Both the position numbers and the translations under genes were made by a program. This document shows positions 9,194 to 59,099 of a stretch of 64,000 nt of DNA, in pieces. Every line of letters begins with the position of its first letter. The stretch's first letter is position 1. This DNA is from Cyanidioschyzon merolae (taxonomy: Eukaryota), in NCBI GenBank assembly GCA_000091205.1, contig AP006498.2; one strand, written 5' to 3'. Below the pieces are notes generated by a model, which saw nothing but the letters and a program-made list of their open reading frames with translations, was not told the origin of the DNA and made no database searches.

Positions 9194-9202
9194 ATTTGAT
9201 TT

Positions 9203-9315
9203 GGAATCGAACCCACGGCCATTGGATTAAAAGTCCAATGCTCTACCGCTGAGCTACGTTGGCTGCGCACGGCGCGTCGAATGCTCAATTCGCGGTGCGA
9301 TCGCCAACGGTGGGG
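9203..9315 (-). tRNA. trnK-UUU: Permuted tRNA-Lys(UUU) gene on the minus strand. The 3' half (T-stem 3' strand, acceptor 3' strand and discriminator; + coords 9302..9314/5) lies upstream of the 5' half (acceptor 5' strand through T-loop; + coords 9263..9205). A 38-nt intervening sequence separates them.
   Basis: Minus-strand read: GAATT-CCCCACCGTTGGCG-[atcgcaccgcgaattgagcattcgacgcgccgtgcgca]-GCCAACG TA GCTC AGCGGTA GAGC A TTGGA CTTTTAA TCCAA TGGCC GTGGG TTCGATT CC. The 5' half folds into a canonical acceptor 5' strand, D-arm, anticodon arm (loop CUUUUAA, anticodon UUU), variable loop and T-stem 5' strand plus T-loop. It lacks the T-stem 3' strand and acceptor 3' strand. The exact complement (CCCAC + CGTTGGC + G) sits 38 nt upstream. 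That gives perfect 7-bp acceptor and 5-bp T-stem pairing with a junction in the T-loop. Chance occurrence of the 12-13-nt complement is negligible. This architecture matches the permuted tRNAs described in Cyanidioschyzon merolae and some prasinophytes. Confidence 0.78.
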
Positions 9316-9344
9316 AATTCGCAGCAATGTACATTGTTCAAAAT

Positions 9345-12437: not shown

Positions 12438-14319
12438 CGCTGGGCGTCGGTTACGGCCTCGTATGAGCGTCCGCATCGTTGATTCCACCGAGTGACTGCA
12501 ACAGAAGGTTTCGCTGAGGCACTGTGCTACTTGGTGCTCCACGAAATCAGTTTGCTGGGCGCATAGACTGGGAATGCCGCGCTTATTCGGGAAACATATC
12601 CTGACTTGTCTTCACGGTGCGGCGGAGAGCCTTTTGCACAGAGTCCTCGTAACCGGTCTTGAGTTTTTGGAGCGAGCGCCTCTAGAGACGATGTCTAACG
12701 CCGAGGGCGCGCATCCCCGGGCACCGTTTCATGGCAAAGTGCTTCATCTCATATGAAGTGCAGCGCTTTGAGCATTGATGTCCAAGAGGATACGCGTTCA
12801 GCGATTGGAGCGCGACACAGATCGAAGCCGCTTCCCCGCTGAGCCGCGTCGAGGAGCCAGCACAAGCGCAAACCAGTACGCACCTATAGAAACGCGGACA
12901 TTTAGGACAAAGCAGTGTTCTTGATGGGTCTTTTCTCACTCCAGGGAGAAGGCGTCGCTTGCAAACTACCGATCATCGCTTGCGTTCCTCTGCTAGAGCA
13001 GTTATACCGTTGCAGCCTCATGGAAAAGGGCCTTGCTTTATACTAGTCACGTTATGAAAAAACGAAACAAGATCCACGCAGTAATCGCAGGATTCAATCC
13101 GATGGTACGGAACATATTGGCCTTTGCGTTTCTCGAGCCATAAAGACGCTTGGTGCTCAGCGGAGATTCCATTTTCATGACCGCAAACGCTCATGAAATA
13201 TGCACACCTGTGCGACTTCCGCACGTTCCACACGCGTCGAGACCTGGCCACCAGGTCTCTCCAGCGCAGCATCAACTGTCTCCGGTCTGACAGGGCACGA
13301 CTGCTCCACGGCGATATGTTCGCGAGCAGGACTGCCTGCTCACCGGTTGTTCGCTGCCTCCGACTCGTTTCATCGAAAAGAATACTGTACCGAAAACGAC
13401 AGAGCCAAACGCTCAGTTGCTTGGAAACGCTGGCCTCATAGCGTTGTTGACCGATATGCCTCGGGGTATCCGCTCTGTGCAAATATTCTGACCGCGATCC
13501 TGGAAACAAACTTCATGGAGGTTCACGAAGTGCGTCTTACGCTTTCAGAACACACACAGGCGTCCGATGCGTGCTCCTTGTCTGAGACGTTCGCCGAAGT
13601 CGCGGCTTAATTGGCGTGCACTGCGCGTCAGCACCAGGTTCGGGTGTGGACCTTATCCTAACCGCAGAATGCCCCAGACCTGAGACCGTTTCGAGGCTTG
13701 CGTACTAAAAATCGACTCGACAAGCGATGTAGGCTTCCTAAATGCCTTCGAATTTGCGTGAGATTGCTTCTTTATTTTGCTGGATCTCGAAAGTTAGCCG
13801 ATTCATGGCACCAGGAGGCCAGACAAGAACCAGCACCCTTCTCACGTCAGGTGGCCTCGTCGTTCCGCGAGTCGGCCTCACTGCAACCCTCAAAGCCTAC
13901 TAGAACTCCTGGACACGAACAAGGACCCCTTCCTACACACGCTTGCCGAGTCGTTCTCGTTACGTCCCCGCTGCAACACCCTAGTCACCAGGAGCATCGC
14001 TTGACGCGAACGAAACAACACCGAGGAAGCGGTGCGCAGCACATCGGTAGAGCGCCATTCGGAAACGTAGGTTTAGGGGCCAGAGTTGCTTCGCGCTTCA
14101 GACCTGCAAGTCGAGGGCCGGTGGACCTATACACCCCGCGCACAAAGAATTTCGTATTGGGGTTACACAAAGGCACCGCGACTCACGTCGAGCTAGGCGT
14201 GTGTGTCCATGCTGCTCGTCAGCGTTTAACGGAGAGGTACGGCGAAGTTCCTGCTCACTGCCCGGTGCGCTAGCGTCCGTTGCTCGACGAGAGGCGGCAG
14301 CATAGCTCAGGAGCTCAGT

Positions 14320-29768: not shown

Positions 29769-31823
29769 TTAGCCATGCTCGATTCGCCGTCCCGCGGCCA
29801 TATGGGGCGCTTGTTGAGCACGATGTGAAAGCATGGTACACGGAATGCCGCCGCCACAAACGTAATATTGTCCGTCCACATAGAGAATTCGACAAAGGCT
29901 GTCCGAAAGCTGGGCGCCAACTTCAGATCCCTGCCAAGACGCTTCCACTGGGGACGGATTCAAGGCAGATGGCGGTTCCCGTTCAACCGCGGGTGTCGAT
30001 GGATATCCCTCTGTCCTGGGTGACGTGGCAGTCGTCTCTGTATCTGTGGGCAGGTGCGTGAAGAGGCGTCTGTTCTGAGGCAATGGAATTCCTCTCGCAG
30101 ACGTCTTTGACTGCGAATCATCGGAGGTAAACGGTGTGGACGACGACGTCCTTCGCACGCTTTCATCCATAAGGTACTCGAAATCATCACGTTCACCGCT
30201 CCTATGCCGCGCAAAGGCGGTACTATTCGTTGATTCGAGGTCCAAAGCCGATGACGCGTTTCGAGAACCTTCAAGCCGTTCTCGGTGTGCTTCCAGGTAT
30301 ACCTGGGGGTCACTTAGAAGAAGATCCACAGGGTCTGCTGGGAGATTTTCAACAGGTCCACGCCAGTCCTGTGAAGCGTATTGTTGCTCCTCCACGATTT
30401 CCCGTGCGATATCCGCGAGCTCTCTCTCAATCAATGCATCCATGGCACAATGCGTTACGTAGCTGAGATCCACCATGGATCGCCACCATGGCGCTACCAG
30501 TCGCCCGGAAGCGCTGCTCGTATTTCCGGATGCGTCGACCTTACAGAGCCAGTTCAACAGGACCAGCGGCAGATTCCGCAAAAAAACTTGGTTGCATTCT
30601 AAGCGGGCGATGGCGTGCTGGCCCAGTTGTTTGATGGCTTCGTGAGATGCCGCCCCGTCCAACTCCGCATCCCAGGCAAAGGAGTGATACCTCTCTTGCA
30701 GTAGCAAACGTGTATCGAAAGCGCTCCGAACAAGAGCCCTTGCTCGATCCAATAGATGTTCCAGTGTGGGCGGATTTGCGTCCCGTATGGCAAGTTCTTC
30801 GGCGGGATCCTCCAATGCACGAAGCTCGCGCAAAAGCGATCGACATTGAAGATAGAAGCGAAGCACCAGCTGTAGGCCTCCGTTTTGGCACCATCCGCCG
30901 TTGAATAACCGCCACAGGAAGTATGCTTCTGTCTGAAGTACACCTTGCTCATAGACGGCCGCGTTGCTGAGCGCTCTCCAGGACTCGGCTACCGCCTCCC
31001 GCGCACGGTCCCGACTAGGGTGCCGGTTGCAAAAGCTACAAGCCTTGAGGGTCGCTAGGGCCCAGGCCCTGGGTAATGCCTCTTCGAGTTCCTTTTCTGC
31101 TCCAGTTTGTCGAGTGAATATAAGCTCAAGGAGAACGGGCTCCGCGAAGAAGCAGTCGATAAGTTGCGACAGCTCGGGTGTCGCGTTCGGAGTCACCTGG
31201 TCCATAGTTTGTCCTTCAGCACTGACGCCAGTATCGCTTTCTGTTCGTTTCCAACATTCCTCTTCGGCTACCAGGAAGCACTGCTGCAAGAAACGCCTCG
31301 CGCGTGGCGACTCGCCGCGCAAAAAAGGCGACCCCGATGGTACCGGGCGATGCCAACGACATGCCCACCGCTTTTGCCGCAGTCTACGCTGTTGTGAACA
31401 TTCCTGGAGAGCCCTGGAGAGCTTGAGAATCTCAGAGGAATCGTTACCCAAACCTGAACCCTTACCGAGCGGTGTCAAGGAGCGGCTCTCGGGGAACGTG
31501 CTCATACCAGAAACGATATCCAGTGAGATTGTGCTTTTTCTTCGCGTGCTCGACGCAGAGCGAACGCGCGTGTTGCTCATCCTTATCGTTTCGGGGGATA
31601 CCTCTGGTTCGATTCTGACAAGTTCTCGCGCAGCGCAAAACTCTGGCTTACTGACAGTATTTACGAGGCATGTCCAGGAATTATTATTCGAGGTTGAAAA
31701 GCGTGCGAGATGTATGCAGCACATACTGCATGATTTGAAAGACCAGGTCCCGTGCTCTGGATCTGGGGCTAGACTGCGTGAACGAACGAGCCCAGAGACG
31801 ATGGGTGTTGAAAAAGCGAGCAT
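29769..31823 (-). CDS. Hypothetical 684-aa protein, mainly alpha-helical and leucine-rich in the middle, with an S/T-rich C-terminal third. No recognised domain.
   Basis: A continuous 2-kb ORF from ATG 31823, within a gene-dense region. No motif identified by eye. Confidence 0.5.
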   Translation of the reverse strand: MLAFSTPIVSGLVRSRSLAPDPEHGTWSFKSCSMCCIHLARFSTSNNNSWTCLVNTVSKPEFCAARELVRIEPEVSPETIRMSNTRVRSASSTRRKSTISLDIVSGMSTFPESRSLTPLGKGSGLGNDSSEILKLSRALQECSQQRRLRQKRWACRWHRPVPSGSPFLRGESPRARRFLQQCFLVAEEECWKRTESDTGVSAEGQTMDQVTPNATPELSQLIDCFFAEPVLLELIFTRQTGAEKELEEALPRAWALATLKACSFCNRHPSRDRAREAVAESWRALSNAAVYEQGVLQTEAYFLWRLFNGGWCQNGGLQLVLRFYLQCRSLLRELRALEDPAEELAIRDANPPTLEHLLDRARALVRSAFDTRLLLQERYHSFAWDAELDGAASHEAIKQLGQHAIARLECNQVFLRNLPLVLLNWLCKVDASGNTSSASGRLVAPWWRSMVDLSYVTHCAMDALIERELADIAREIVEEQQYASQDWRGPVENLPADPVDLLLSDPQVYLEAHRERLEGSRNASSALDLESTNSTAFARHRSGERDDFEYLMDESVRRTSSSTPFTSDDSQSKTSARGIPLPQNRRLFTHLPTDTETTATSPRTEGYPSTPAVEREPPSALNPSPVEASWQGSEVGAQLSDSLCRILYVDGQYYVCGGGIPCTMLSHRAQQAPHMAAGRRIEHG

Positions 31824-37024: not shown

Positions 37025-37298
37025 TCCGTCACCATGTAGGAAGGTCTCACACCTTGCCCGCACCCACGACAAAGTGGATCACAAGCTTTATATGCAATCG
37101 TTAGCGCTAAACTGTTACCGCTCCCAGGGCTGAGGTCCAGAGACCACACTCGAGTTCACGTTCTTTCGTCGACGTGTCCGAAGCGTCAGCGCTGAACAGT
37201 CTGAGCCCTAGCGGGCCGCGGCTCGTTTCGCACCGACTCCCGCAGCGCGTCCGTCTCGTTTCTCCGCCTAACGTCAAGAGGGTGCTTCGGAGCCGGCA

Positions 37299-37640
37299 AT
37301 GGCGACACCGCTTTTAGCTGGTATTGCGGTTGCTGGCGCAGCTCTAGCTGGAAGAGCGGCTATACGGGCGTGGCAAGTACTGAAGACGGCGCCGGCTCGG
37401 CCAAAGTTTCCGCGTTCCTTTTTGCAGGGCGGCTTCGAGCCCACTATGAGTCGCACGGAGGCGCTTCACATTCTGGGGCTCAGGGAGGGTGTTCCCCGAG
37501 AAAAAGTACGCGAGGCGCACCGTCGACTGATGCGAATAAATCATCCCGACACGGGCGGAAGCGCATACCTCGCAGCAAAAGTCAACGAGGCGAAAGAGGT
37601 GCTGCTAGGGACGGGGCGCCGACCCACAGCCGGTGTGTAG
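37299..37640 (+). CDS. PAM18: Mitochondrial import inner-membrane translocase subunit TIM14/Pam18 (DNAJC19-type J protein)
   Basis: ATG at 37299. N-terminal hydrophobic segment 'PLLAGIAVAGAALAGRAAIRAW', then J domain 'MSRTEALHILGLREGVPREKVREAHRRLMRINHPDTGGSAYLAAKVNEAKEVLLG' with the HPD motif. 113 aa, against 116 aa for human DNAJC19. Confidence 0.85.
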   Translation: MATPLLAGIAVAGAALAGRAAIRAWQVLKTAPARPKFPRSFLQGGFEPTMSRTEALHILGLREGVPREKVREAHRRLMRINHPDTGGSAYLAAKVNEAKEVLLGTGRRPTAGV

Positions 37641-38547
37641 AGTTTGGCGGTTCTGTTCGCTGCAACAGTACAAGATACGAACTTGTAGTCTGCTCGAGTT
37701 GGCAAGCATTGAACAAGTTTTGCTCGTTGGCGCTGTGCCGGGTCGATAGCGCTCGTCTGGGACACCGAGCACTCTGGCGTGCTTCTGGAGGTCGCGAGCG
37801 ACCTCCAGGCACCTCTGGGGCGTGGAGCCAGCCACCTCGGTTGCTGCGCGGTAACTGCTGTTCGAAGTCTTTAAAGTACGCTCCGAGAGAGTTTTGCCTT
37901 TTTTTTCTGGATGCGGAACGATGATCTCGTGTTATGCAGTGCTTGCGCAGTGACAGTAGCCATGCATCATCCCGGGCCGAGATGTGCACTGCCGCGAACG
38001 ACACTGAGCAGAGGTCCAGCCAATGAATTGCAATGCTGGAGATGGACTAGAATTTCATGAGAAAGGAACCTGCAGTTTACCCAACGGTACTGGATGTAAA
38101 TTTCTGACATGGGGTTTATGTGCGATGAATGAATGATACCAGGGTCCGGCGTTGACATTCCCGGAGAGGTGCGGATCTCAGGCCCCTGAATCAGCCACGA
38201 GTGCTAGCTTTGTCTGCATCCGCAGCGCTCTCGCTGCGCTGTAATGTACCGTTCCTCGATGGATGTCAAAACGTGTAGCCGAATGGGCGTTGGTAGAGGC
38301 GTCTAGGGCGCGATGCGGCGCGCTTCAAGCGTTCGAGCAAGGCACGGCACCCTGGGTCGATGCTCCGTTAAAACAGGCTTGAGTGATGGCGTTCAAAGTC
38401 CAAGCCATTTCCGTGACGGCAGATGCCTTGCCTGTGAAAACTTGAGGAAACAGCGTCGGCGACGATGCGACTTACATGAGCAGGCCGCTGCCGTCTGAAC
38501 CGCGCCGTCTCCTTCTCCGGTAAGCTTGCGCACGTTTTCGCCTGCTT

Positions 38548-38946
38548 TCAGAGCAGAAGCTGTTCGATCTTTGTTCGAAGCGCGGTGATCTGGTTCCGCA
38601 GTTGACTCATATCCGCCCGTAGAACCGCACAGGCGATCACTGGACGGGAAACGCCGCATGCACGTCCCAGCGCGGCTTTCGAGGGAACGAATACATACGG
38701 TACCGCTTTATCCTCTGCAACGAGCGGCGCTGAGAGCAGTATCTCCAAAGGTTGCGTATCAGCCGCGAGAACAACAAACTCTGCCAGACCGCGATTCATC
38801 GACTTGAGCACCTCGTTCAGACCCTTTTTGATCTGCTTATAATGGCTCGCTTGCTGGACAAGATCGAGTATTTCAACGACTAAGTCAGCAGGAGCGAACG
38901 GGTACGCTCTCGGATCCGCCTGATTCGGCGCGGTGACGACGTCCAT
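38548..38946 (-). CDS. SNU13: Snu13/NHP2L1 (15.5K; L7Ae-family U4 snRNP and box C/D snoRNP protein). The ORF track starts at 39006; the likely ATG is at 38946.
   Basis: '[98 protein letters not shown]' closely matches human SNU13 '[98 protein letters not shown]'. Confidence 0.9.
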
Positions 38947-40432
38947 GGGCCTGCTTGGCGCTTCAGTGGAGCTCAAAGGTTCCATGTGTTGCCACACAAA
39001 CTTCACTAGCAGTGGAAGCCAGTGCGATGTTCAAAACTAAAGATTGTTCGAAAACCAGCGCAATCGCACCGTTGCTTGTCCAACAAGCGTCCTCGTTCAC
39101 GAGTACTTGTGCCGAAAGAAACTTGGCTGCGGCCTTATCGGATACGGGACTCGCACCCGTCGCAAACACTCTAAGAGGGAGCAAGCCCTCGGTCGCGTAT
39201 GATCCCAGTTGGCTCTCACACCCGTGACCCTTTCTTGGTTCGAAGAGCGCCTCTCAGTCCCAAGAAAAACTCGATCGCCCGCGAAGCAGAACAAAAGCGC
39301 CTTGAAGCACTCTCCGAAGAACAAGGAGAGCGTCTCCTGAAACGTTTGCCGCAGGATTGATGCGCCGACGGGTGTAGGGTCGGCTAGAGGCCCCGGTTTG
39401 CACACGATCCCCAATGAGATAGGGACAGTTTGGTAAATCAGTGACTTTTGTTGTAGATTATATGACAAGAGCTTCGCACTGCGTACGCTGCGCACTGGAG
39501 CAGCAAGCGAACGCTGTCCATGGACCTCCAAGGTACACGTTTGGACGCAACGCGTTCGCCGGGTGTCGGCTTACCTGCTGGTTGGTGTGGTGCAGCAATG
39601 CCTAAGGAATTTGACAAGTACCGAGATATCGTTTCAAAAAAGATGGATCGGGTGAATTTCCGTGCCCATGCACTGCGCTGAGCTTCATGCCGTAGGACGG
39701 CTCCTGATCTGACGGTAAACGCATTCACGTGGCATGCGCTGAACGCCCATCGCGGTATTTATCTACTTTGACAAGGGTTTGCACAGGAATACACGAACCA
39801 ATAGCTGTGCAGGTGCAGATAATCATTTAGATATTAAACTTGATCCACTGTTTCACCCTTACTATTCATGGGTAGAGGTATCGGCAACTGCGAAAGCAAA
39901 AATAATCTTTTGCAAACAAGGTTTTGTCCTCTATATCATTCACACAGTCAGGGATAGCTGCTTTGCAGGCTGCAAGAGCAGCCTCAGGCTGACGGTCCTC
40001 CCTAGACTCTGCAGATATATACTCGCCAGGGTTGCTTAAGGCAGTTGTGGCAACCGCGCTTCCCCGTGAAGGCAGCACGTCCGTCCGATACAGGCGATAC
40101 ACCCAAGTCAGTGTAGGATACAACCGGTCCTCTGATGTGGGCGTACATTCTAAAGTTTCGCTCTCTGTAAACCATCATCCACAATAGCATTTGCAGGGTT
40201 TTTTCTAACTCGTTTCCCACGTAGAATCCACTGGTCTCGCCTGCTCCTCCAGCTTCGTTACCATCACTCGACGGATGTTGATGGCACCAAGATCGTGCCT
40301 GCTACGCTGGCTCAGGTTTCGTCAACGCTTTCCATGCAAAAGGCGCAGGGTATCATCTAAGCTCCGCTTACCATTCGGATCTCCTTCGCGCGCAACCTCG
40401 GTACACTCTTTACGGCGGTGGCACATCACTTC

Positions 40433-40902
40433 GGTCATGTTTTCAAGCACGTGCATCAACTCGCCGCCGCGGAAGGCTGCTCTATGGCGCGTTGACGCCT
40501 GCTTCATCGCTTGGTTCATGCTCTGGACGAGTGCAGAAGGCATCGCTTGATGCGCGCCCCCGTCTTGGTGCTCGGTGCAGTACCATACGAGCATCCGCCT
40601 CTTCTGGGCGATGCGCTCGGCGAGTACATTGTCCGTTGCACGCCCAAACGCAGGCGGCTCTATTGGATCGAGGATCTGTGAAACGTCAGCTTTTCCTTGA
40701 TGAACCTATTACCTTGCAGAGAATCGAGGCTCAAACACACGCCGAGAAATTTCGTTGCGTCTACACTCTCATCGGGCAAAACGGTGATACACGCCCCGCA
40801 GGAAGCGATCGCTGCGATGGCTCAAGTCCGAGTCCAAGAACCTGCTCGATCCCCAGAGAAGAGACGTGAGCCTCTGGGAGCAAATCCCATGTGAGAAATC
40901 AT
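40433..40902 (+). repeat. Dispersed repeat family A, copy 1 (at least 470 bp verified; probably extends upstream). Contains ORF fragments 40322..40594(-) and 40492..40869(+).
   Basis: It is ~99.5% identical to the reverse complement of 63531..64000. I saw about two substitutions over 470 bp, one of them S vs Y in the 125-aa ORF. The identity boundary is at gagaaatcat|gc (40902). Confidence 0.85.
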
Positions 40903-41789
40903 GCTGCTGCCGAATGCCATTCCATTTATATCCATACAGATATCATGACAGATAATCCAACGACTAGGTGTGAATCCGTAAGCCGTTGTTGCCGCTGCAC
41001 TTCGAATGTCAAGGCTCTAGACCTGAAATAAGGTTTGGAAAATCTCCATGCAGGAACAGAGCCAGCATCCCAGTGTTCCCTGTTTCGAGCACATTCTATC
41101 GTCGCCTTTGGAGTATTCCGCTCGACAAGTGCTGGTGCCTTGTGAGCGGGCGCTGCTCGCCGCATTGGACACAGACACGCCTAGCGTTGCTTGCTGACGT
41201 CACTGCTTCTGCTGCTGCAACTTGCGAACCGGGCAGCTGGAAGTACGCAAACTCGCCAACGACGAGAGGCGCTCTAGTGTTGGAAGCTCCGTGCACTGCA
41301 GAGCGCGATTGTCGCTTGCTACCCAGAACGCTTTTTCGGTAGCTGCGACGGCAGTAGCAGCAGCTGCTACTTCTGCCAAAAACCGCCGCCGGTTCGCAGC
41401 CACGCCATCGTTGCTGTGAACGGGTGTCGCTTTCGAGGTTGCTCGTGAAACTTGGGTACCGTTGGAAGGCGCGGGGTCTTTGGCATTGGACCTCACTGGA
41501 AGTGAAACGCGTTCTGGGTGTCGATTACCTAAAAACAAGAGGCCCGGAACCAGAGGCGTCCCTGCGTATCGGCTGTACGCGACGGACGTCCGATACCAGG
41601 TTTCAGCGCTTATACGTAGCGGACGGAGGGGACGCGTCTCAAAAGTCTTCAACTCGAAAGGAGCATAGTTTCGTTTCAAACAGAATTGGAAGAACAGCGC
41701 GCACATATTCTATCAGGTGTTAGGTTCTGTAGGTAGGTCTTGTCTGGCTGTTCCAGCAACAGACGATCGCTGGCATTCCGCTCGCGGAT

Positions 41790-44700
41790 ATGTACGCGGC
41801 GCTGCATCGAGTCACAGCAACGATTGAAGCTGTTGATCTTAGCCCGCTACACTTCGAAGCTCATGTGTCTAGCCCAGCTTCTATGAGTCGTAGAATGACT
41901 GCGTTGCTTCACTGGGGACCTTCTCCAGTGCTCTTTGCCTCTCCTTTTTACCAGGCTGGGGCTCGAAATCAGCGAGCAAACGCCACGAAAATCACTCGCT
42001 GGAGTATACGCTGTCGAAAATACGCTCGCTCTGAGGGCCTCGGTTTTCTAGCAATCACGCAACCAAAGACCAGCCTGGTACGAACGGCATCACACGCGGC
42101 TTACAACGCAAATCTATGGGCAGCAAGGAGATCCGGGCGAGTTTCTCCTCGAATGACGACAGGTTCTTCACCAGTGCTGTCGACTCGTCGTGCGGAACTT
42201 GTCTGCTCGCGCTACGTAGTCTTCTCTGATCTTCATGTCGATGCGAATCGGCTGGAGACGTGCTTGCAAGTTCTTGAGCGAGTTCATGAATTGGCCACTG
42301 CCAGAGATGCGGGCATCATATTTCTTGGCGATTTCTGGCATCTACGAGGAAGCATCCCAGTCATATGCCTCAATCGGGTCCTGGAGACGGTTCAGCAATT
42401 CACTGTACCATGCCTGATGCTTCCAGGTAATCACGACCAGGTAAGCATCTGCGGACGGGAACACGCGCTGGTCCCAGTGGCGGCAGCGATGCAGCCTGGT
42501 CTCGCGCTCGTGTTTGACGAACCTGTAGTGATGTTTGATGCGCTCTGGCTGCCGTATCGCAAGCGTCCGCTGCAACTAGTGGAAGCGCTGCGAGAACACG
42601 GACCCCATGTGAAAGCTGTCTTCTGTCATGCGGAGATTCAGGGCGCGTGGCTCAATAACCAGATGCGCTATGGAGGGCCCGGTGGTATCGCACCGGAGCT
42701 CTTCCCGCCTTCGCCAGTACCAACCTATGCGGGTCACTTTCATCGGCCCCATACGGTGACGGGCTATCCGCATATCCAGTATGTAGGCTCGCCCTATCAG
42801 GTCACGCGAGCTGAGGAAGGACAAGAGAAACATCTCCTTGTCGTGCGATCAACGGACTGGCTCACAGAGGAAATCGTGCCGCTAGCCATTGGACCTCGTT
42901 TCTTTCGCGTTTCATTGAAACAGGCTCGGCAACAACTAAGCGCTAGCATCCCTGCATCGGCGGCAGAAGCAACAACATCAGCGACAACGGGCTTTCGACC
43001 CGGTGATCGTGTTACGCTGCTCTGCACCGCATCCGAGCTGCAGCAACAGCGCACCGCCGGTGCCAAAGACATGGACCACGATTTGGAGTATGTCTATAAC
43101 GAACTACGTCGCAGAGGCATTCACGCAAGTATGCGCCTATGGGATGCACCAGCAGAAAATGAGAAAGTTTCATCGAGCAGCGCGCAACGCACCTTTGTTG
43201 AACCTCAGTTGCGAATGCCGAATGCGGAGCGCCTCGACGCTGCCGATGTGCTGCGCCTGTTTGCGCGCCAGCACCCGCAGCAGTTGGACGGAACGACGCT
43301 GGCGCTCGGACTTTCGATTTTAGAACAAATTCAAAAATCGAACGCAAAAATTGCTCGCGGGGAATCTTTTTCGCGCTTGCGTGCTGTGCATGTCCTCTTC
43401 GATTCTGTGCGACTCCATAATTTCGGCTGTTTCCATACTGAACCGGATAGCAACCAAGTAGATCAGCTGTCAATGGACGTAGCAGGGAGCACAAGGCATC
43501 AGATGAGCGTCACGAGTGCTTCGGAAGAATCGCACCAGGACCTCGAATCCAACGGTGGTGTCGTGAAGCGCGGGCGAGTGGCGGCGGCTACTGCTACGGC
43601 GGATGGAGCATGGCGTACGATCCCCGCGAAACCTGGTATCTGGTATCCGCTGCGCAATCGAGGGATCGTCCAAGTATCTGGACGCAATCTCGATGAAGAC
43701 GGTTGCAATTCGAATGGTACGGGAAAAACGACTTTGGCGATGGCAGCGCTATGGGCTCTAACAGGGAGCCTGGAACCGCGGCCTCATCTGCGACGTAACG
43801 TGTCGCAGTTGCGGATTCTGCACGAGGACGCTACGGAAGGTTTTGTTGAATTGCGAGCTAGCGTGAATGGAAAACCGCTTTTGGTGCGGAGGAAAGTTCG
43901 CCGCAGTGGGAAACAGCGGGAAAGATATAACCAGGAGCTTTTCGTGGAGTACGACTCCCGGGATCTCACACGCCTCAGCATCGAGGAAACACAACAGCGA
44001 CTGAATGAGATCATTGATCTCTCACTGTTGCCACATGTAGTCTTTTTTGGCCAGAATTATCTGCATGGCTTGCTCTCCACAACCGACAAGGAGTTTAAGG
44101 AGATTCTGGAGAGCGCCTTGCCGCTGCAAGTCTGGAACGAGGCCTATGCGCATGTCACTGCACGACAGCGAGCACTGCGTGAAGAACGCCAGCAACTTGC
44201 TCAAAAAATCCAGAGCTGTTCACAGGCGTTAGAGCGCGAGCGGGAACGAATCGAAGAGCTCGCTCGAACAGAGCGAGAAACAAGACTGCAACTCGATCTT
44301 CAAGAGCAGGAACTGAAGCAGAGTCTCGAGCAGTGGCAGCAAGGCGCAGCGGAAGCATCGGCCTCGGATACTATCGACAGCGGCAGCGACAACACGTCTC
44401 TCGAGGCGCTCCGCGAACGCATTCGTCACCTGAAAGCGAGCATCGATGCCGACGTGACCACTCTGGCGGAGCTGCAACGCAAGGAGGCGAAACTTCATGC
44501 GGAGCTTGCCCAGGCGCAGAGACTCTGGGATCAGTGGGCTGCGCTCCATGCGCAGCTCCAAGGCGATGCGGGAATAACCGTGTGCCAGGGCAGCCTCGAG
44601 CAACGCCGCACGGCTCTGCACGAACAAGTGAAAGACCTCAAACGAGTGTTGCAAGAGCTTCAGCTCCAGGAGCAGAGCACAGTTGCCAGCATACGCCACT

Positions 44701-46013
44701 TGGACCGGATGCTGCATTCGGAGCAACCTCCGGTGGCATCCAGCGCAGCAGATTGCGATGGAGCAGCAAAGCCGCAGCAAACACATTCGAAGACTTTCTG
44801 CGCCCTGTGTCTCCAACCAGTAGATGCTGCGTCGTATGCTGATCGTTTACAGGCCCTACAGACGGACCGCCAGCGTCTGGCAAGTGCGCTGGATGACCTC
44901 CGCGCACAGCGGCACGACAAGGACGCGGAAATCCAGATCATGGAGCGCGAACTCAGAGACACAGAAGCGGCATTCATGGAGCGGCATGCATTGGAGCAAC
45001 GCCTCGATGCAGTGGTGGCGTTGCGCCCCACACCCGAGCATTTGCATGAGCTTTCGCAAGCGAGCGATCGTTGCAGCATGGAGGCCGCACTTGTTATGCG
45101 CACGCTCGATACGAATCGCCAGCTTCTAGCCGAATATGAACAGCATCTGCTGCAGCAGCAAGAGCTGCGTTTGCACCAGGAACAACAGCGCGCGCGTTAC
45201 GACCGAGCCCTTCGAGCGTTGGACTGGACTCAACAGCAGCGACAGCGTCTACTCCAACCGATAGCTGCTGCGATCCTAGAGGCAACTGCGCACGTCGCGT
45301 CGCTACAGTCCACGTTAAACGAAGCGGTAGCGCATGAACGCACGCTTGTGGATACTGCGGATCGTCTGGAATTCCTTGCGCGCGCATTTCATCGCGGTGG
45401 CATACCGAGCCAGTTACTGGATCAGAGCCTGCAAGTCATCGAGACGCTTTGTGGTCATTACCTACGACATCTGAGCGATGATACGCTTTTACTGCGAATA
45501 CGTCGTCGCCGACAAGCGCAGCGTCCTCGGGAGCGGGAGCTTACCAAGGCTACCACGCGCGCAGAGAACGCACTCGAAGTACTTGTCTGGCAAGTCTACT
45601 GTCGAGACGCGCGCACAGGCACGTTCCGGGAACGAGAACTAGGCCTGCTCAGCGGCGGTCAGTTGCGACGAGTCAGTATTGCACTTTCCTTGGCCTTTGC
45701 CGAGTACATCTGTCATCAGCTGGGATATCGTAGTAATCTGCTGGTCTTGGACGAGGCTCTTCAACAGCTTGATCAAGAGGGTGCCCGTCGCTTAGCGTCA
45801 CTACTGCCGCAGCTGCAACGTGAGACGGTGCTGGTTATTGCCCACGAGAATGCCAGCTTTCTCGTGGACATCGCGGATGCGCATGATGTTGTGGAGCGTG
45901 CATCAGGGCGCAGCACGGTGCACTGTGATACCGGGTTTTTAGAGACAGAGCTCGCAGGCGACTCGTTTTCAGGGCGTTCAGAGCTCGTCCCGCAAGCGCA
46001 GGTCCGACGCTGA
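41790..46013 (+). CDS. Fused SbcD/Mre11-like metallophosphoesterase plus SbcC/Rad50-like ABC ATPase in one 1407-aa polypeptide, with a transit-peptide-like N-terminal ~140 aa. Candidate organelle-targeted SbcCD-type DNA repair nuclease.
   Basis: ATG at 41790. Phosphoesterase motifs I-V: 'VVFSDLHVD', 'IIFLGDFWH', 'LMLPGNHD', 'CHAEIQG' and 'AGHFHRPH'. Walker A: 'GRNLDEDGCNSNGTGKTTLAMAALWALTG'. Long heptad coiled-coil (~residues 770-1230) carrying a central 'FCALCLQP' CxxC zinc-hook-like motif. ABC signature 'LSGGQLRRVSIALSLAFAE', Walker B 'LLVLDEALQQLD' and H-loop 'VLVIAHEN'. No in-frame stop separates the nuclease and ATPase parts. Confidence 0.8.
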   Translation: MYAALHRVTATIEAVDLSPLHFEAHVSSPASMSRRMTALLHWGPSPVLFASPFYQAGARNQRANATKITRWSIRCRKYARSEGLGFLAITQPKTSLVRTASHAAYNANLWAARRSGRVSPRMTTGSSPVLSTRRAELVCSRYVVFSDLHVDANRLETCLQVLERVHELATARDAGIIFLGDFWHLRGSIPVICLNRVLETVQQFTVPCLMLPGNHDQVSICGREHALVPVAAAMQPGLALVFDEPVVMFDALWLPYRKRPLQLVEALREHGPHVKAVFCHAEIQGAWLNNQMRYGGPGGIAPELFPPSPVPTYAGHFHRPHTVTGYPHIQYVGSPYQVTRAEEGQEKHLLVVRSTDWLTEEIVPLAIGPRFFRVSLKQARQQLSASIPASAAEATTSATTGFRPGDRVTLLCTASELQQQRTAGAKDMDHDLEYVYNELRRRGIHASMRLWDAPAENEKVSSSSAQRTFVEPQLRMPNAERLDAADVLRLFARQHPQQLDGTTLALGLSILEQIQKSNAKIARGESFSRLRAVHVLFDSVRLHNFGCFHTEPDSNQVDQLSMDVAGSTRHQMSVTSASEESHQDLESNGGVVKRGRVAAATATADGAWRTIPAKPGIWYPLRNRGIVQVSGRNLDEDGCNSNGTGKTTLAMAALWALTGSLEPRPHLRRNVSQLRILHEDATEGFVELRASVNGKPLLVRRKVRRSGKQRERYNQELFVEYDSRDLTRLSIEETQQRLNEIIDLSLLPHVVFFGQNYLHGLLSTTDKEFKEILESALPLQVWNEAYAHVTARQRALREERQQLAQKIQSCSQALERERERIEELARTERETRLQLDLQEQELKQSLEQWQQGAAEASASDTIDSGSDNTSLEALRERIRHLKASIDADVTTLAELQRKEAKLHAELAQAQRLWDQWAALHAQLQGDAGITVCQGSLEQRRTALHEQVKDLKRVLQELQLQEQSTVASIRHLDRMLHSEQPPVASSAADCDGAAKPQQTHSKTFCALCLQPVDAASYADRLQALQTDRQRLASALDDLRAQRHDKDAEIQIMERELRDTEAAFMERHALEQRLDAVVALRPTPEHLHELSQASDRCSMEAALVMRTLDTNRQLLAEYEQHLLQQQELRLHQEQQRARYDRALRALDWTQQQRQRLLQPIAAAILEATAHVASLQSTLNEAVAHERTLVDTADRLEFLARAFHRGGIPSQLLDQSLQVIETLCGHYLRHLSDDTLLLRIRRRRQAQRPRERELTKATTRAENALEVLVWQVYCRDARTGTFRERELGLLSGGQLRRVSIALSLAFAEYICHQLGYRSNLLVLDEALQQLDQEGARRLASLLPQLQRETVLVIAHENASFLVDIADAHDVVERASGRSTVHCDTGFLETELAGDSFSGRSELVPQAQVRR

Positions 46014-48565
46014 GGTGCTCGCAGTCGTGCGCGTTTGACTTTTGTACCGCTGTATTCAGTGCAGTGGACTCTGGAAGTTATACATGATCACACCCATTGT
46101 GTTTTTATTTGTTTTGCTCGGTAGGTATTCAAGAAAACCGACGTATGCTTTCATGATGGAGAAAGGTTGCAGAATGACTTGATGCCGACTCTGTTAGTTT
46201 AGCGAAGAACGACGGTATCTGTACGAGCCGGCCACTTACGTGCCAGCCGGCGGATCATCCACACTGCTTCTTGGCGCCATCAAAAGTGCCTTGCACCCAG
46301 AACGGCGCTTTGTTTCTGCGAGAATGCCTTTTCATCAGTCCAACGCATTCTATTTGGCCCTTAAGGAATCCGACCAAAGAAACCGTATAGTATGTGCGGT
46401 TTCCATACCATCGATACGAACAGCGATCAGCAGACACTGATGGACAAGGAGAAACACAAGCTTCTAGGCGAGACCGTCGCGCAGGGACCCATGCACTGTT
46501 GTTTTGTGCGAAAACGCGACCGATAATGACAGGAGCGACGGACGCTCGTCTCACTCGATGAGCGTACGTTCGGGAGAACTGGCAGATCTGTGTGTGAGTG
46601 CTCAAAGGGCTATAGTGCGCTGTTCGGGGCTCATGCCGCGTTAGCCGCTAGCTCTCCGAAAAATCAGACGTACTGGTCACCTAGAGACGTTTCGGATCGC
46701 GAACCTCTCATATCCCTATTATTCTTGTTCTCTGCTCTGGATGGAATATGGAGTTCCAGTTCGTCTTTACGTACGAATTTCGAATCGAAAAATGCGTGTC
46801 TTCGTGAATTCCGCCGGAGGCGGCGGGGAGAAGCGCCCTCCTTCTTCTCCATTTGGAAAGCGAATATTTTCACAAATTGCCCCATAAGCGTGCCCTGCTT
46901 TGCAGTGCGTCTCAATTCGAGCTCCAAACTCTCCTAAGTGCAAGTTTTGCTGCGCGCGCGACATCGAACTCGTTGCTTACGGTAATAAAAGTATACATAC
47001 GCATGCCTGCTTGTCGAAAGCAAACCCGCATCCCGGAGTGGCCTCTTCGATGCATCAACCTCGCGTCATCCATCAAGAACGCTTACACTTGTCTGCCGCG
47101 GGATACCGGCATACGTTTGCGTACGCGCATCCGCGATACCAGCTTCGCGGTTTTAGAGAGCTCTATTGTCGCATCCGTCGTTTCTCAGTGTAGCATCTCT
47201 CCCAGTACAAAGACGATGCGCTGCAGCCTACCATATCATTGTCCGTTAGGGCGTTGTGCAAGAGCACAGCGGAGCTAAGCGGAGTTTCCGGGTAGAGTCG
47301 CGGGCACGCAGCGCGATGCAATGCAAACATATGCACTGGCAAACGCTGTCGTTAGCGACATCGCAGCCGTCGCAGGAGCCACCGTATTCATCAGCGGTGC
47401 TGCAAAACCCGGGTCATGAAGCATGTACTGAGTCTGTAGCCGGCGTCGAGCGCCGCTCTCGCTGAGACGCGAGCTACGGCAGGGAAACCTTCCGGCAATG
47501 TATCGAATACGGTTCTGAAACGGAGTTGCATGAAACCGAAACATCTTGTCCCAGTAAACCTCCACTGCAGCGCGTGCAAGAACGAATAGCGGGCTCTATT
47601 TAGGGCTTTCCGCCGGACAACTGGTGCTGCAGCTTGTCCAAGAAAACTGCTGCTCCGGTTGTATCAGGTCGCCACGGCTGGCGGCAAAGCGTTCGTGCTG
47701 AGTGCCACCCTCTGAGCCGGTGCTGCCCATGCGAAAACCCTCGAAGACACTGTTCAGCGTTCTTGAGACCCTTGGAAACAGCCTCATCTAACTGGCACGA
47801 GCGCAGAGAAGCATCGTCGCGCCGCAGCACTTCTACGTGCTGTGCAGGCTGGCTTGAACGCCAAAACCACAGCACGACCCTATTTCCAATATTCCAGCAG
47901 ACATACATAAAACAGACCAAAAATTCCAATGCTCTTCGAATACGTACACCACGCTATGTGAATTTCGCGACTACTCATCATCCAGTAAAACAACAAGCAT
48001 AAGCTGTACGTTCTCGCCCTGTCAATAGAGCTGGCGTCTGCAGCTGCTGGTGTGTCCCCAGATACCACGCCTGTCCCAGTGCGCTTGCATTTGCCCTCGA
48101 CACCCTTCACTGCCACTCTAAGATCCAACCCGAAACAAATAATATCCTTTCTACAACGTTTGTTCAACCTCTTATCGAGAAAACGGCTCAAATACTCGAC
48201 AAACAACGTTTACGCACGCGACTAAACTGACTTTCCTTAACGGTTACCGCAAGGCGCCTGCACCAACACCCGTCGACGCCTGTCTCTTGTCATTCTATAT
48301 TCGGTTCTTGTGGCAAGCGAGCACCAAACGCGTTCCTCGAGCGCACTGAAGCGAGTACGATTGCTTTCCCGAGGCAACCAGAGCCTCAGTTAATAACCAC
48401 AAGCACACTCCAGACTCGAAGCGCTTTTCAGTACCCGAGTTGCGTGGCGAGCGACCGGCTTCGAGCGCTGTGCAGGCGCTTTTTCGAGCGGAACGCAGAG
48501 CACTGCTGCCGTGAATGCACCGAGCATCGAGGCCGTTGTCTGAATCGCGCTGTCCTTCACCGGCA

Positions 48566-49009
48566 ATGGCACGAAGTACTTCGGACCGTTCCGCACACAC
48601 AGCGGGAAGTGCAGCCTTCCCCAGCACGGTAACGTCGACACCCGCGTCCACCTCGACGTCGATGTCGTGGAGCGGGCACAGCAGCCAGGTCGCGAACCGA
48701 GCGGACCTGTCGGGTGTAGCGTATGCGGACTTGCTGGAGCAACAGAATCAGGATCGAATTCAGGCGCTTTCCGGCAAAGTGGGAGCTATGAAAGAGTTGG
48801 CTATCCAAATCAACGAGGAGGTTATCACCCAAAACCGTTTTCTGGACCAGGATCTCAGCGACTCGATGGGACGTACTGTGGAGCAACTGCGCAACTCAAT
48901 GCGAAAACTAGAACAACTGGTACGGTCTGGTAGTTCTTACGCACTCTGTTACGGGGTTCTGGGTATTGTTGGGGTTCTTTTTCTGTTACACTGGTTGTTT
49001 CCGCGCTGA
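48566..49009 (+). CDS. Bet1-like Qc-SNARE (ER-Golgi). The ORF track starts at 48515; the likely ATG is at 48566 (or 48662).
   Basis: S/T-rich N-terminus. SNARE heptad region 'QDRIQALSGKVGAMKELAIQINEEVITQNRFLDQDLSDSMGRTVEQLRNSMRKLEQLV' with the conserved Q-layer context. A C-terminal transmembrane anchor 'YALCYGVLGIVGVLFLLHWLF' lies 2 residues from the stop. Size (~115-148 aa) fits Bet1. Confidence 0.7.
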   Translation: MARSTSDRSAHTAGSAAFPSTVTSTPASTSTSMSWSGHSSQVANRADLSGVAYADLLEQQNQDRIQALSGKVGAMKELAIQINEEVITQNRFLDQDLSDSMGRTVEQLRNSMRKLEQLVRSGSSYALCYGVLGIVGVLFLLHWLFPR

Positions 49010-49240
49010 TTCCAAACGCATACTTGTGCACAGTCCAGGTGTTGCACTCAAGTCGTCAATGAAGCCGAGCATACGAGTCGTACAGCGCGCGAAGACACCT
49101 TGCCGCTGTCTACATGGCAGCTCGGGGTTCGCGGTCGCGAGCGGAAAAACAACAACAACAACAACATCGATCACGATGACGTCGAGAGGGTGTACCCCAG
49201 GTACGTGCTGCCGATGCCGGCAATGCGACCATTCGCCGCT

Positions 49241-57302: not shown

Positions 57303-59099
57303 ATGTGGTGTTTCGTGACTGGACGGTGTGCTCCACTTTGGGGGGTTAACACAAACAGCACTTCGGTGACAGCTCGGTCTCGATGGAGGACGGCTGTCTG
57401 CGGCGGCCAGCAGCAGAGGTGCACAAGACGCACAAAGCTGGCATCGAGGCGTCCCTGCCGGGCTAGCGCTAGTGACCCGAACTTCTGGCGAGACGTGGCG
57501 CGCTCAGTGTCCGAGCAGGGCGAGCTGGCGACTTCGCGAGCTCCTGTGCGTCGAGAGCGACCTCCTCCGCAATGGGTGGCGCCGCCGCCCGGCTTTGAAC
57601 TCGATACGAGCGGCGAAAGCAGTTCGACTTGGGCTTCATGGCGCGCGGCGGCAGAGGCAGCGCAAGCCGAGCAAGAGGCGGTGCAAGAGCGGCTTGAGCG
57701 TGGCGAACCTGTGCGTGATATGACCGCTGAACGAAACTTCTGGCGGAGCGCAGCGGCTGAACTAGGCGCACCGTTGGACCCCGGCAGAACGGCAGCCGAG
57801 CTACGCACTGCAGCAGGCGGGTTGGCGGAGCGTCCTTCGGAGCATAATCGCAGCGAAGAGATTGGGAGCATCGATTCGAACATTCCTGAATCGGATGAGG
57901 AGTGGGACCCCGACACCTCCTGGATGCAAATGTATGCGTCAGACGCTGTTGAATTCGTTTCGGGAACCGAATCTGCTGATGATAATCTTCAAGGGACACT
58001 TTGGGGCGCCGCTCTGGGATCCGAGCAAGCAGCACGCGAACGTTCATCCACATCCTTGCAGTCGTTATCCGCAGAATGGGACACGAAGGAGCGCATTCCT
58101 GATTCCGGGGCAGAAGCTGCAGACGAGGAGGAAACCTTGGAGCCGCGCGATCCGAAGAAGGAGACAGCATTCTGGCGGGGTGCGGCCCAGGAGCTGCTTG
58201 GGGCATCCACGGGAGCTACGTCGGATGCGTTCGCGACTCGCTCGACCACGTCGCACAGCGCAGACGGGAGTGCCACGCAGGACTCCGAAGAGGAAACCTG
58301 GGAGCCGCGCGATCCGAAGAAGGAGACAGCATTCTGGCGGGGTGCGGCCCAGGAGCTGCTTGGGGCATCCACGGGAGCTACGTCGGATGCGTTCGCGACT
58401 CGCTCGACCACGTCGCACAGCGCAGACGGGAGTGCCACGCAGGACTCCGAAGAGGAAACCTGGGAGCCGCGCGATCCGAAGAAGGAGACAGCATTCTGGC
58501 GGGGTGCGGCCCAGGAGCTGCTTGGGGCATCCACGGGAGCTACGTCGGATGCGTTCGCGACTCGCTCGACCACGTCGCACAGCGCAGACGGGAGTGCCAC
58601 GCAGGACTCCGAAGAGGAAACCTGGGAGCCGCGCGATCCGAAGAAGGAGACAGCATTCTGGCGGGGTGCGGCTCAAGACATCATCGAGAGCCTTCCGACA
58701 CAAATCGAACTCGGTGTGGATGCACAGTCAAGCGCCAGCACTCCCGCCGTTCCCGATGCGCATGCCGGAACTGGTGATCCCGACGTTACAGCCGAAGAGC
58801 CCGTAGGCCCAGCTGAAGCCTGGGCTGCCTGGCGTGCCGCCCGAGCTTCTTCTAAGAACGTGTCCGCTTTACCCGCTCCTGTGGCTGAGACGCACCCAGA
58901 ACCTCTTTCTGAAACAGAGATCTGGATTCAGTGGCGAGAACAGCAAAGAAAAACCTGGGCAGGAGCCCTCAACGACCTGAACCGTAACCGTCCGCGAGAA
59001 CAGCAAGTTGCGCGACCCGAGAAAAGCACCGTTGATCGCTGGCGCCATGTTGCCGCAGAACTATCACAAGACAGCCCACAAAGCGAGGAGAACTCATAA
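57303..59099 (+). CDS. Repeat-containing acidic protein with about ten degenerate 'xxFWRxAAxEL' motifs, including three perfect 54-aa tandem repeats
   Basis: ATG at 57303. The protein is 598 aa. Recurring motifs: DPNFWRDVARSV, ERNFWRSAAAELG, ETAFWRGAAQELLGAS (x3) and ETAFWRGAAQDII, plus W-containing variants (EAWAAWRAARAS, TEIWIQWREQQRK, VDRWRHVAAELS). Three-plus units of 'EETWEPRDPKKETAFWRGAAQELLGASTGATSDAFATRSTTSHSADGSATQDSE'. Confidence 0.6.
   Translation: MWCFVTGRCAPLWGVNTNSTSVTARSRWRTAVCGGQQQRCTRRTKLASRRPCRASASDPNFWRDVARSVSEQGELATSRAPVRRERPPPQWVAPPPGFELDTSGESSSTWASWRAAAEAAQAEQEAVQERLERGEPVRDMTAERNFWRSAAAELGAPLDPGRTAAELRTAAGGLAERPSEHNRSEEIGSIDSNIPESDEEWDPDTSWMQMYASDAVEFVSGTESADDNLQGTLWGAALGSEQAARERSSTSLQSLSAEWDTKERIPDSGAEAADEEETLEPRDPKKETAFWRGAAQELLGASTGATSDAFATRSTTSHSADGSATQDSEEETWEPRDPKKETAFWRGAAQELLGASTGATSDAFATRSTTSHSADGSATQDSEEETWEPRDPKKETAFWRGAAQELLGASTGATSDAFATRSTTSHSADGSATQDSEEETWEPRDPKKETAFWRGAAQDIIESLPTQIELGVDAQSSASTPAVPDAHAGTGDPDVTAEEPVGPAEAWAAWRAARASSKNVSALPAPVAETHPEPLSETEIWIQWREQQRKTWAGALNDLNRNRPREQQVARPEKSTVDRWRHVAAELSQDSPQSEENS
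58139..58680. repeat. Perfect 162-bp tandem repeat, ~3.3 units, inside the repeat-protein CDS
   Basis: Unit starts (ggagccgcgcgatccgaag...) at 58139, 58301, 58463 and 58625, with exactly 162-bp spacing. The units looked identical by eye. Confidence 0.9.

Follow-up and report, generated by a model that had tools for sequence, protein, structure and literature searches.

A 64,000-nucleotide stretch of Cyanidioschyzon merolae DNA (contig AP006498.2, assembly GCA_000091205.1; the whole stretch is called the window below) contains a long open reading frame (ORF) that an earlier note, made from the letters alone, had read as an SbcD/Mre11-like nuclease and an SbcC/Rad50-like ATPase joined without interruption in one chain of 1407 amino acids (Table 1). 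The frame is indeed open throughout, and its translation is 100% identical, over 1407 of 1407 residues, to the deposited C. merolae 10D protein BAM81923.1 (XP_005537959.1; UniProt M1VKC3), whose gene lies on a 908,485-bp chromosome. This protein was deposited as "similar to desmoplakin", which is evidently a misannotation caused by its coiled coil. At least eight environmental variants are about 99% identical to it, and each is exactly 1407 amino acids long. The few positions at which they differ from it lie in the leader (14, 55 and 92-118) and in the inter-domain segments, and none lies in a catalytic motif. The fixed length and spared motifs of the variants, together with the database identity, indicate that the ORF is real, nuclear and selected along its full length.

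Table 1. The fusion gene and its parts. Positions are those of the window; residue numbers are those of the 1407-residue protein.
Feature	Residues	Window position	Strand	Remarks
Complete ORF, with stop	1407 aa	41790..46013	+	Single-chain Mre11/SbcD-like nuclease fused to Rad50/SbcC-like ATPase
N-terminal leader, presumed organelle transit peptide	1-135	41790..42194	+	Basic, rich in hydroxylated residues, nearly acid-free, poorly conserved
Mre11/SbcD-type phosphodiesterase and capping domain	141-450	42210..43139	+	D147-x-H149, G180-D-F-W-H184, G213-N-H-D216, H280, G315-H-F-H318
Helix-loop-helix	484-494 and 501-524	43239..43361	+	Predicted local distance difference test (pLDDT) score about 90-97 in both models
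Rad50/SbcC-like N-terminal head half	533-780	43386..44129	+	Pfam AAA_23, SMC_N; phrog_77, 178 bits
First Rad50 beta-strand, VLFDSVRLHNFGCF	534-543	within 43386..44129	+	Structure model
Walker A, NSNGTGKTT	about 641-649	43710-43733	+	Includes N642-G-T-G-K-T-T
Q-loop	Q755	within N-terminal head half	+	Motif conserved in family alignment
Ascending coiled-coil arm		44130..44789	+	In the model, about 779-976 helical and 977-1000 disordered
Coiled-coil apex	1001-1011	44790..44822	+	C1004-A-L-C1007 at 44799-44810
Descending coiled-coil arm	about 1012-1200	44823..45389	+	Structure model
Rad50/SbcC-like C-terminal head half	1201-1377	45390..45920	+	Pfam SbcC_Walker_B; Rad50 sequence matches in PDB
Signature LSGGQ; Walker B LLVLDE (D1321-E1322); H-loop	1287-1291; 1317-1322; H1352	within 45390..45920	+	

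The nuclease half carries every calcineurin-like phosphoesterase motif that had been claimed for it (DxH, GDxxH, GNHD, H and GHxH), each at its expected place. We aligned the window protein with 95 homologues, giving a family alignment of 96 sequences, in which the metal ligands of the nuclease (D147/H149, D181/H184, N214/H215, H280 and H316/H318) were kept in 94-96 of the 96. The Pfam Metallophos model matched with 26.1 bits (gathering cut-off 21.5), and PHROG 100 ("SbcD-like subunit of palindrome-specific endonuclease") matched with 77 bits. The structure models have the Mre11-specific fold, in which the phosphodiesterase domain is followed by a capping domain that extends to about residue 450. 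The NCBIfam SbcD model (PRK10966) reached 31.9 bits against a cut-off of 450 and covered residues 304-373 only, and Pfam SbcD_C and Mre11_DNA_bind gave no match in the window protein.

A linker of about 250 residues had been proposed to follow the nuclease. This part of the proposal has to be given up, as the region is mostly folded in the structure models and consists of the capping domain, a helix pair and the first Rad50 strand. The helix pair (residues 484-524) sits between the capping domain and the Rad50 N-terminus. Judged from this position in the models, it is a candidate counterpart of the Mre11 domain that binds Rad50 by clamping its coiled coil at the base. The Rad50-like N-terminal lobe also has an acidic, Ser-rich insertion modelled with low confidence (residues 556-610; 43455-43619), placed after the first beta-strand and ahead of the Walker A strand. 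It appears to be lineage-specific and had been counted as part of the proposed linker.

The ATPase half was recognised by Pfam AAA_23 (40.7 bits, cut-off 27), by SbcC_Walker_B (29.1 bits, cut-off 27) and by PHROG 77 ("SbcC-like subunit", 178 bits), while SMC_N fell just short of its cut-off (37.3 against 40 bits). The curated NCBIfam Rad50 models stayed far lower (PRK03918, 40.3 bits against 700; PRK01156, 22.2 against 847), and the sequence search of PDB gave only weak matches, to Rad50 (E-values down to 2e-5) and to SbcD/Mre11. The Walker A GTGKTT, LSGGQ signature, Walker B DE and H-loop named in the earlier note were all found, and the signature and Walker B motifs are kept in all of the family sequences that extend that far. 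A structure model of residues 400-1407 (mean pLDDT 77.7) shows a bipartite ATP-binding cassette (ABC) head with two long helical arms. In a Foldseek search with this model, the first two ranks were taken by Rad50 of the Mre11-Rad50-Nbs1 (MRN) complex from C. thermophilum (E 8e-18 and 8e-17). MukB, Smc5/6, JetC and LmuB followed at E 1e-12 or weaker, and then the heads of human Rad50 and E. coli SbcC. By the model, the nearest structural neighbours are Rad50/SbcC rather than other structural-maintenance-of-chromosomes (SMC) proteins, by a modest margin.

The coiled coil is about 420 residues long, and the CALC motif claimed for its centre is present as C1004-A-L-C1007, at the apex of the model. 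The two cysteines were kept in 91-92 of the 96 sequences, with a family consensus of CxxC(L/G/H)QP, and a CxxC at mid coiled coil also occurs in the phage and giant-virus relatives described below. Pfam, motif, PHROG and Foldseek evidence agree on a genuine single-chain fusion, and we regard it as almost certain that the window protein is a fused Mre11/Rad50-type protein.

Contrary to what the earlier note had implied, the fusion is not peculiar to C. merolae. A search of 5.8 billion proteins returned the 95 homologues, nearly all of them 1000-1700 amino acids long and collinear with the window protein, and a second search with the lycophyte protein as query, together with name look-ups, added further members. 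The nuclease domain was also compared exhaustively by phmmer with 1.84 billion cluster representatives, of which 185 matched at E<=1e-30 and 642 at E<=1e-10. The fused architecture is kept in more than 90 homologues from dozens of independent genomes and transcriptomes. Fused orthologues stand in well over a hundred sequence clusters from algae and bryophytes, either uncharacterised or misleadingly labelled, for instance as "calcineurin-like phosphoesterase domain-containing protein", "ABC transporter (ISS)" or "ABC transporter AbcH.3". The statement that Mre11 and Rad50 are separate in all known eukaryotes thus holds for the canonical pair and fails for this family, which is already in the databases.

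This breadth also bears on the possibility that two genes were falsely joined by annotation or assembly, or that the ORF is a disused pseudogene. Prokaryote-style gene callers do split some algal orthologues (for example at locus L034), and a split arrangement exists in phages. Against this stand a frame of 4.2 kb without a stop, both in the finished C. merolae 10D sequence and independently in the same-length environmental variants, a collinear fusion recurring across so many independent sources, the conservation of all catalytic residues, and variant substitutions that avoid the catalytic domains. The artefact explanation is effectively refuted, and its chance is negligible.

Members of the family were found among red algae (Cyanidiococcus, with 56% identity, Cyanidium, Galdieria and Gracilaria), chlorophytes (Ostreococcus, Bathycoccus, Chloropicon, Tetraselmis, Chlorella, Coccomyxa, Trebouxia, Dunaliella, Volvox and Chlamydomonas species) and streptophyte algae (Chlorokybus, Mesostigma and Spirogloea). 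Land plants contribute liverworts (Marchantia, Riccia and Calypogeia), mosses (Physcomitrium, Ceratodon and Sphagnum) and the lycophyte Diphasiastrum. Also represented are many diatoms, among them the non-photosynthetic Nitzschia sp. Nitz4, further ochrophytes (Triparma, the yellow-green alga Tribonema, the brown alga Scytosiphon and an ochromonad), the cryptophyte Hanusia, Chromera and Euglena. The searches returned no homologue from ferns, gymnosperms or angiosperms, though seed plants and ferns dominate the public plant data. Animals, fungi, amoebozoans and other plastid-lacking eukaryotes gave no named match, also in the phmmer scan, of whose matches a subset is named. Among the named eukaryotic members, the phyletic pattern is that of plastid-bearing lineages only.

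The N-terminus had been described as transit-peptide-like, and its composition fits: residues 1-140 contain 3.6% D+E, 13.6% K+R, 20% S+T and 15% A, and residues 32-80 include 0 acidic and 10 basic residues. Judging from the sequence, translation may truly begin at the in-frame Met32 or Met36, the latter of which lines up with a Met of Cyanidiococcus. In all eukaryotic members, 30-420 residues precede an invariant FSDLH motif, whereas the viral relatives begin at the motif. In diatoms, plastid import uses an endoplasmic reticulum (ER) signal peptide followed by a transit peptide that starts with Phe (the ASAFAP motif). Four thalassiosiroid diatom orthologues have such a leader, with a hydrophobic signal peptide and then AS(S)/NS|F(Q/H): MMRPLLLLLPLMLIPRS|FQFS in Skeletonema, LLQLMILVPIASS|FQPS in Cyclostephanos, LLAVHLLLSIIIASS|FQLP in Thalassiosira profunda and LLLSLLQIIILVTISNS|FHYS in Detonula. 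An N-proximal Phe is typical of rhodophyte transit peptides, and a Phe stands within the first four residues in Galdieria (MAFIFG), Gracilaria (MTAFAR) and Cyanidiococcus (MAKFSQ).

The organelle destination that had been suggested is thus backed, as far as sequences can tell, by the restriction to plastid lineages and by the bipartite diatom signals, and we consider that the family is probably targeted to plastids. The leaders, the phyletic pattern and the retention of the gene in a colourless diatom that has a plastid genome point to plastid DNA maintenance rather than photosynthesis. The same enzyme might instead be mitochondrial or dual-targeted and process the ends and hairpins of mitochondrial DNA. 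Read from Met32, the C. merolae leader is Arg-rich and acid-free and would fit a mitochondrial presequence as well, and dual targeting is common among the organellar DNA-maintenance proteins of plants and algae. However, no named homologue comes from plastid-lacking eukaryotes, all of which have mitochondria, and the ER signal peptides and AS|F motif of the diatom proteins would not lead to mitochondria. We therefore hold a mitochondrial or dual destination to be unlikely.

Some orthologues (P0023, P0026, P0084, P0073, P0027, P0245, P0276, P0223 and P0306) have an extra conserved module between leader and nuclease. It occurs in ochrophyte and Euglena orthologues, and reads roughly W/IxVGDxV...G(G)WY/WWxV...RxxQL; neither the red and green algal members nor the window protein has it. 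From its sequence, it may be a small beta-barrel of the Tudor/SH3/KOW kind.

A cyanobacterial or alphaproteobacterial origin of the gene was considered. We scanned 185,579 prokaryotic genomes (one per species), seeded with two peptide patterns, and the matches listed were only distant split SbcCD-like loci with 36-69 bits, from Chloroflexota, Armatimonadota, Paraburkholderia and one Spirulina. The Spirulina locus (L009), the sole cyanobacterial one among the matches listed, scored 45 bits. The nearest proteins are instead fused phage-like and giant-virus-like ones, followed by split phage pairs. With no close bacterial orthologue among the matches listed, and with phage and giant-virus proteins placed closest in the trees, this origin was rejected.

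In the split phage pairs, a nuclease of about 335 amino acids (36-37% identical to the window protein, 102-114 bits) is followed by an overlapping SMC-type ATPase of about 670 amino acids with a central CxxC. Such pairs adjoin RecA, PolA, RuvC and Cpn10 on metagenomic phage-like contigs (L033, L035), and they also occur in IMG/VR viral genomes of 37-130 kb. Phage-like contigs also encode fused, leaderless proteins: P0349 (1177 aa) beside a helix-turn-helix repressor and an IstB-like loader, P0294 (955 aa) beside RusA, and P0095 (938 aa) beside the PolIII alpha subunit, RecA, ThyX and dUTPase. The fused phage proteins scored 154-211 bits against the window protein in the best segment, and P0349 shares with it 37% identity in the nuclease, 37% in the N-terminal head half and 35% in the C-terminal head half. 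A further tight group of fused, leaderless proteins of about 1038 amino acids lies on marine contigs of 45-500 kb (L036/L037 at 10001-13117, L052 and L053), with neighbours that include heliorhodopsin, a K+ channel, an Erv1/Alr thiol oxidase, Ras/Arf GTPases, ERCC4, DHFR and ORFs of several thousand residues. By this gene content the marine contigs appear giant-virus-like, which suggests that algal giant viruses have this single-chain enzyme too. When 50,697 cultured phage genomes were searched by tblastn with the window protein and two fused phage proteins, the matches (SPO1-like, PA5oct-like and other phages) reached only 22-29% identity; close viral relatives are known from metagenomes only.

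Neighbour-joining trees were built with Kimura distances on 919-933 columns, with 100 bootstraps and bacterial SbcCD as the outgroup. The eukaryotic proteins, the fused phage proteins P0294 and P0349 and the giant-virus-like proteins formed one clade, with a bootstrap support of 100 for all columns, 82 for the nuclease only and 95 for the ATPase only, and the split phage pairs branched next. Within the eukaryotes there were a green clade (87%) and a red-derived/complex-plastid group. As the nuclease-only and ATPase-only trees gave the same clade, both halves share one history, and the fused phage-like and giant-virus-like relatives indicate that the fusion predates the eukaryotic gene. The sequence comparisons on balance favour a phage-type ancestry. 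In the simplest reading, a phage-type single-chain enzyme would have been captured early in plastid evolution and would then have spread with secondary plastids.

The viral affinity could also mean that the gene is a domesticated viral one with a non-organellar role, either in nuclear or cytosolic defence against viruses or foreign DNA, analogous to Lamassu or Wadjet, or as a relic of giant-virus integration. Its nearest non-eukaryotic relatives are viral, PADLOC gave weak matches to mad3, LmuB and PbeC, and JetC and LmuB were among the Foldseek matches. However, these matches reflect the common SMC/Rad50 head, and Rad50 and SbcD/Mre11 score best; membership in a defence system was rejected for the same reason. 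Lamassu LmuB, Wadjet JetC, PbeC and mad3 have in common with the window protein the Rad50/SMC head and coiled coil. Unlike it, these SMC-like defence ATPases have no Mre11-type nuclease with a capping domain, and the window protein lacks the cognate partner domains of the defence systems. The eukaryotic proteins form one clade with green, red and complex-plastid substructure, kept from red algae to lycophytes, a pattern typical of vertical housekeeping inheritance and not of scattered insertions by viruses, and leaders are found on all of the eukaryotic members but on none of the viral ones. The surroundings in the window are ordinary too, as had been noted: the G+C content is 50-60% throughout with no step at the fusion gene, and long intronless ORFs on both strands encode a UCH ubiquitin hydrolase, proteasome RPN1, spermidine synthase, a DEAD-box helicase, a class I aminoacyl-tRNA synthetase and an amine oxidase. 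A non-organellar role of this sort is quite improbable, less probable still than a mitochondrial one.

We also considered whether the protein is simply the canonical nuclear Rad50 of the organism with a fortuitous N-terminal region. This was rejected: the curated Rad50 and SbcD hidden Markov models (HMMs) stay far below their cut-offs, the family forms its own clade, and the nuclear MRE11 of C. merolae, which the earlier note had wanted confirmed elsewhere in the genome, is a separate gene, CMB035C, whose product forms nuclear foci (PMC6606799). Canonical Mre11-Rad50(-Nbs1) belongs to a separate lineage. The window chain is fused, has no Nbs1/Xrs2-type partner region and no match to the Mre11 C-terminal DNA-binding domain, and its coiled coil is much shorter than that of eukaryotic Rad50.

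Bacterial SbcCD is an ATP-dependent nuclease acting on hairpins or palindromes and on blocked ends. E. coli SbcC and SbcD are two polypeptides, in contrast to the single, leader-bearing, nuclear-encoded window protein. Its similarity to bacterial SbcCD is very low (about 32 of the 450 bits demanded by the NCBIfam SbcD model), and it lies nearer to viral proteins in the trees. The best profile matches are to the recombination nucleases of phages, namely T4 gp47/gp46, T5 D12/D13 and SPO1-like ones (PHROGs 100 and 77). Among phages, the closest split pairs stand beside RecA, PolA, RuvC or RusA, and the uncultured P0349, P0294 and P0095 are already fused. The phage proteins have no leader and shorter coiled coils, whereas in eukaryotes the gene belongs stably to the host and is passed on vertically.

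Taken together, these lines of evidence make it fairly probable that the product of the window ORF is an Mre11-Rad50 (SbcCD-type) machine in a single chain, encoded in the nucleus, targeted to plastids and of phage ancestry. Several observations weigh against parts of this reading. The Pfam zinc-hook model PF04423 gave no match in the window protein, and we call the CxxC zinc-hook-like because of its conservation and position. Of the HMM matches that had been proposed as a check, Metallophos (PF00149) and AAA_23 (PF13476) exceeded their cut-offs, while SbcD_C and the zinc hook gave nothing. The H-loop His (window 45843-45845) is Gln in 79 of the 96 sequences, with His only in Cyanidiales and a few others. 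Most family members may on this account differ from Rad50 in ATPase kinetics; Rad50/SMC ATPases do not usually have Gln in place of the H-loop His. The C. merolae leader is unusually long, with three acidic residues among its first 31. The bacterial scan, being seeded with patterns, could have missed a closer bacterial relative. Eukaryote monophyly had a support of 46-84% in simple neighbour-joining trees, so transfer among phage, giant virus and alga could have run in more than one direction. Finally, seed plants maintain plastid DNA without the family, which means that its function is dispensable or replaceable.

SbcCD, Mre11-Rad50 and gp46/47 are established complexes, and a mechanism for the single-chain enzyme can be modelled on them. 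The leader would be removed, and two mature chains would then pair through three contacts: the Mre11-like nuclease domains would dimerise, ATP would engage the two Rad50-like heads, and the CxxC apices of the coiled-coil arms, each about 200 residues long, would share a zinc ion. The helix pair would clamp the base of the coiled coil. An M2R2-like assembly would result, made from two polypeptides and not four. Through binding and hydrolysis of ATP, the assembly would clamp a DNA end or hairpin and expose it to the di-metal nuclease site, which would act as a 3'-5' exonuclease and also cut endonucleolytically, near ends or at hairpins.

Plastid genomes are maintained by RecA-type recombination, and we know of no nuclease identified as preparing broken or hairpin-capped plastid DNA ends. 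The proposed enzyme could clean blocked or hairpin-capped ends and begin resection for RecA-dependent recombination repair, and it could also serve recombination-dependent replication of the polyploid plastid genome. By analogy with the complexes above, a role in end or hairpin processing of plastid DNA seems somewhat favoured. More tentatively, and with somewhat less than even confidence, the family might be the nuclease that processes double-strand-break ends and initiates resection in plastids, and algae and bryophytes would then need it to repair plastid DNA and to replicate it by recombination. On this reading, a phage single-chain Mre11-Rad50 would have been captured when primary plastids arose, or close to that time, and inherited with each secondary plastid; the ancestor of ferns and seed plants would have lost it and replaced its function.

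Organelles already use machinery derived from phages, such as the T7-like RpoT RNA polymerases, the Twinkle primase-helicase and PolI-like organellar polymerases. Like these, the window enzyme would be a nuclear-encoded protein of phage type that did not come from the endosymbiont chromosome. It differs from them in being another class of enzyme, restricted to plastid lineages and absent in ferns and seed plants. If the proposal is right, it adds a further phage-type enzyme to the organellar nucleic-acid toolkit. The type of enzyme is familiar; what is new is a branch of Mre11-Rad50 that is single-chain, leader-bearing, specific to plastid lineages and related to viruses.

We found no description of a plastid or algal fused SbcCD or Mre11-Rad50 in literature coverage that leaves out most subscription journals, where an earlier account is possible. 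The claim that the system is undescribed is in line with this, since no paper on the family turned up in the literature searched. A 2021 review of plant organelle genome maintenance names MRN for the nucleus only. The family therefore offers a specific candidate for the end-preparing nuclease of plastids, one that is genetically testable in tractable species such as C. merolae, Chlamydomonas, Physcomitrium, Marchantia and Phaeodactylum. Its loss before seed plants would point to a changed plastid DNA maintenance and, if correctly read, would explain why Arabidopsis-centred genetics missed the family. Structural and single-molecule studies would also gain a convenient object in an Mre11-Rad50 that is a single chain by nature, and the wrong annotations "similar to desmoplakin" and "ABC transporter AbcH.3" can be corrected.

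Some minor features of the window were also recorded. The flanks of the fusion gene are unusually long for a compact genome, with 4.7 kb upstream (37073-41789) and 3.2 kb downstream (46014-49240). Their longest ORFs encode 184 amino acids (upstream) and 164 amino acids (downstream), and neither flank gave an Rfam or tRNA match. Elsewhere in the window, the ORFs at 14320-17022 (plus strand, 900 aa) and 29769-31823 (minus strand, 684 aa) had no Pfam match at E<=1e-5, and the sole Pfam match of the ORF at 57303-59099 (598 aa) was sub-threshold and spurious.

On the minus strand, at 9198-9322, there is an apparent circularly permuted tRNA-Lys(UUU) gene. Rfam matched positions 7-64 of the tRNA model only (9257..9198, 40.3 bits), and ARAGORN called nothing there. 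The presumed 5' acceptor strand GCCAACG is at 9263-9257, and its complement CGTTGGC follows the T-stem 3' strand CCCAC upstream, at 9314-9303; the sequence past the downstream T-loop cannot pair. Permuted tRNA genes have already been described for C. merolae, and the layout of this putative tRNA-Lys(UUU) gene fits them.

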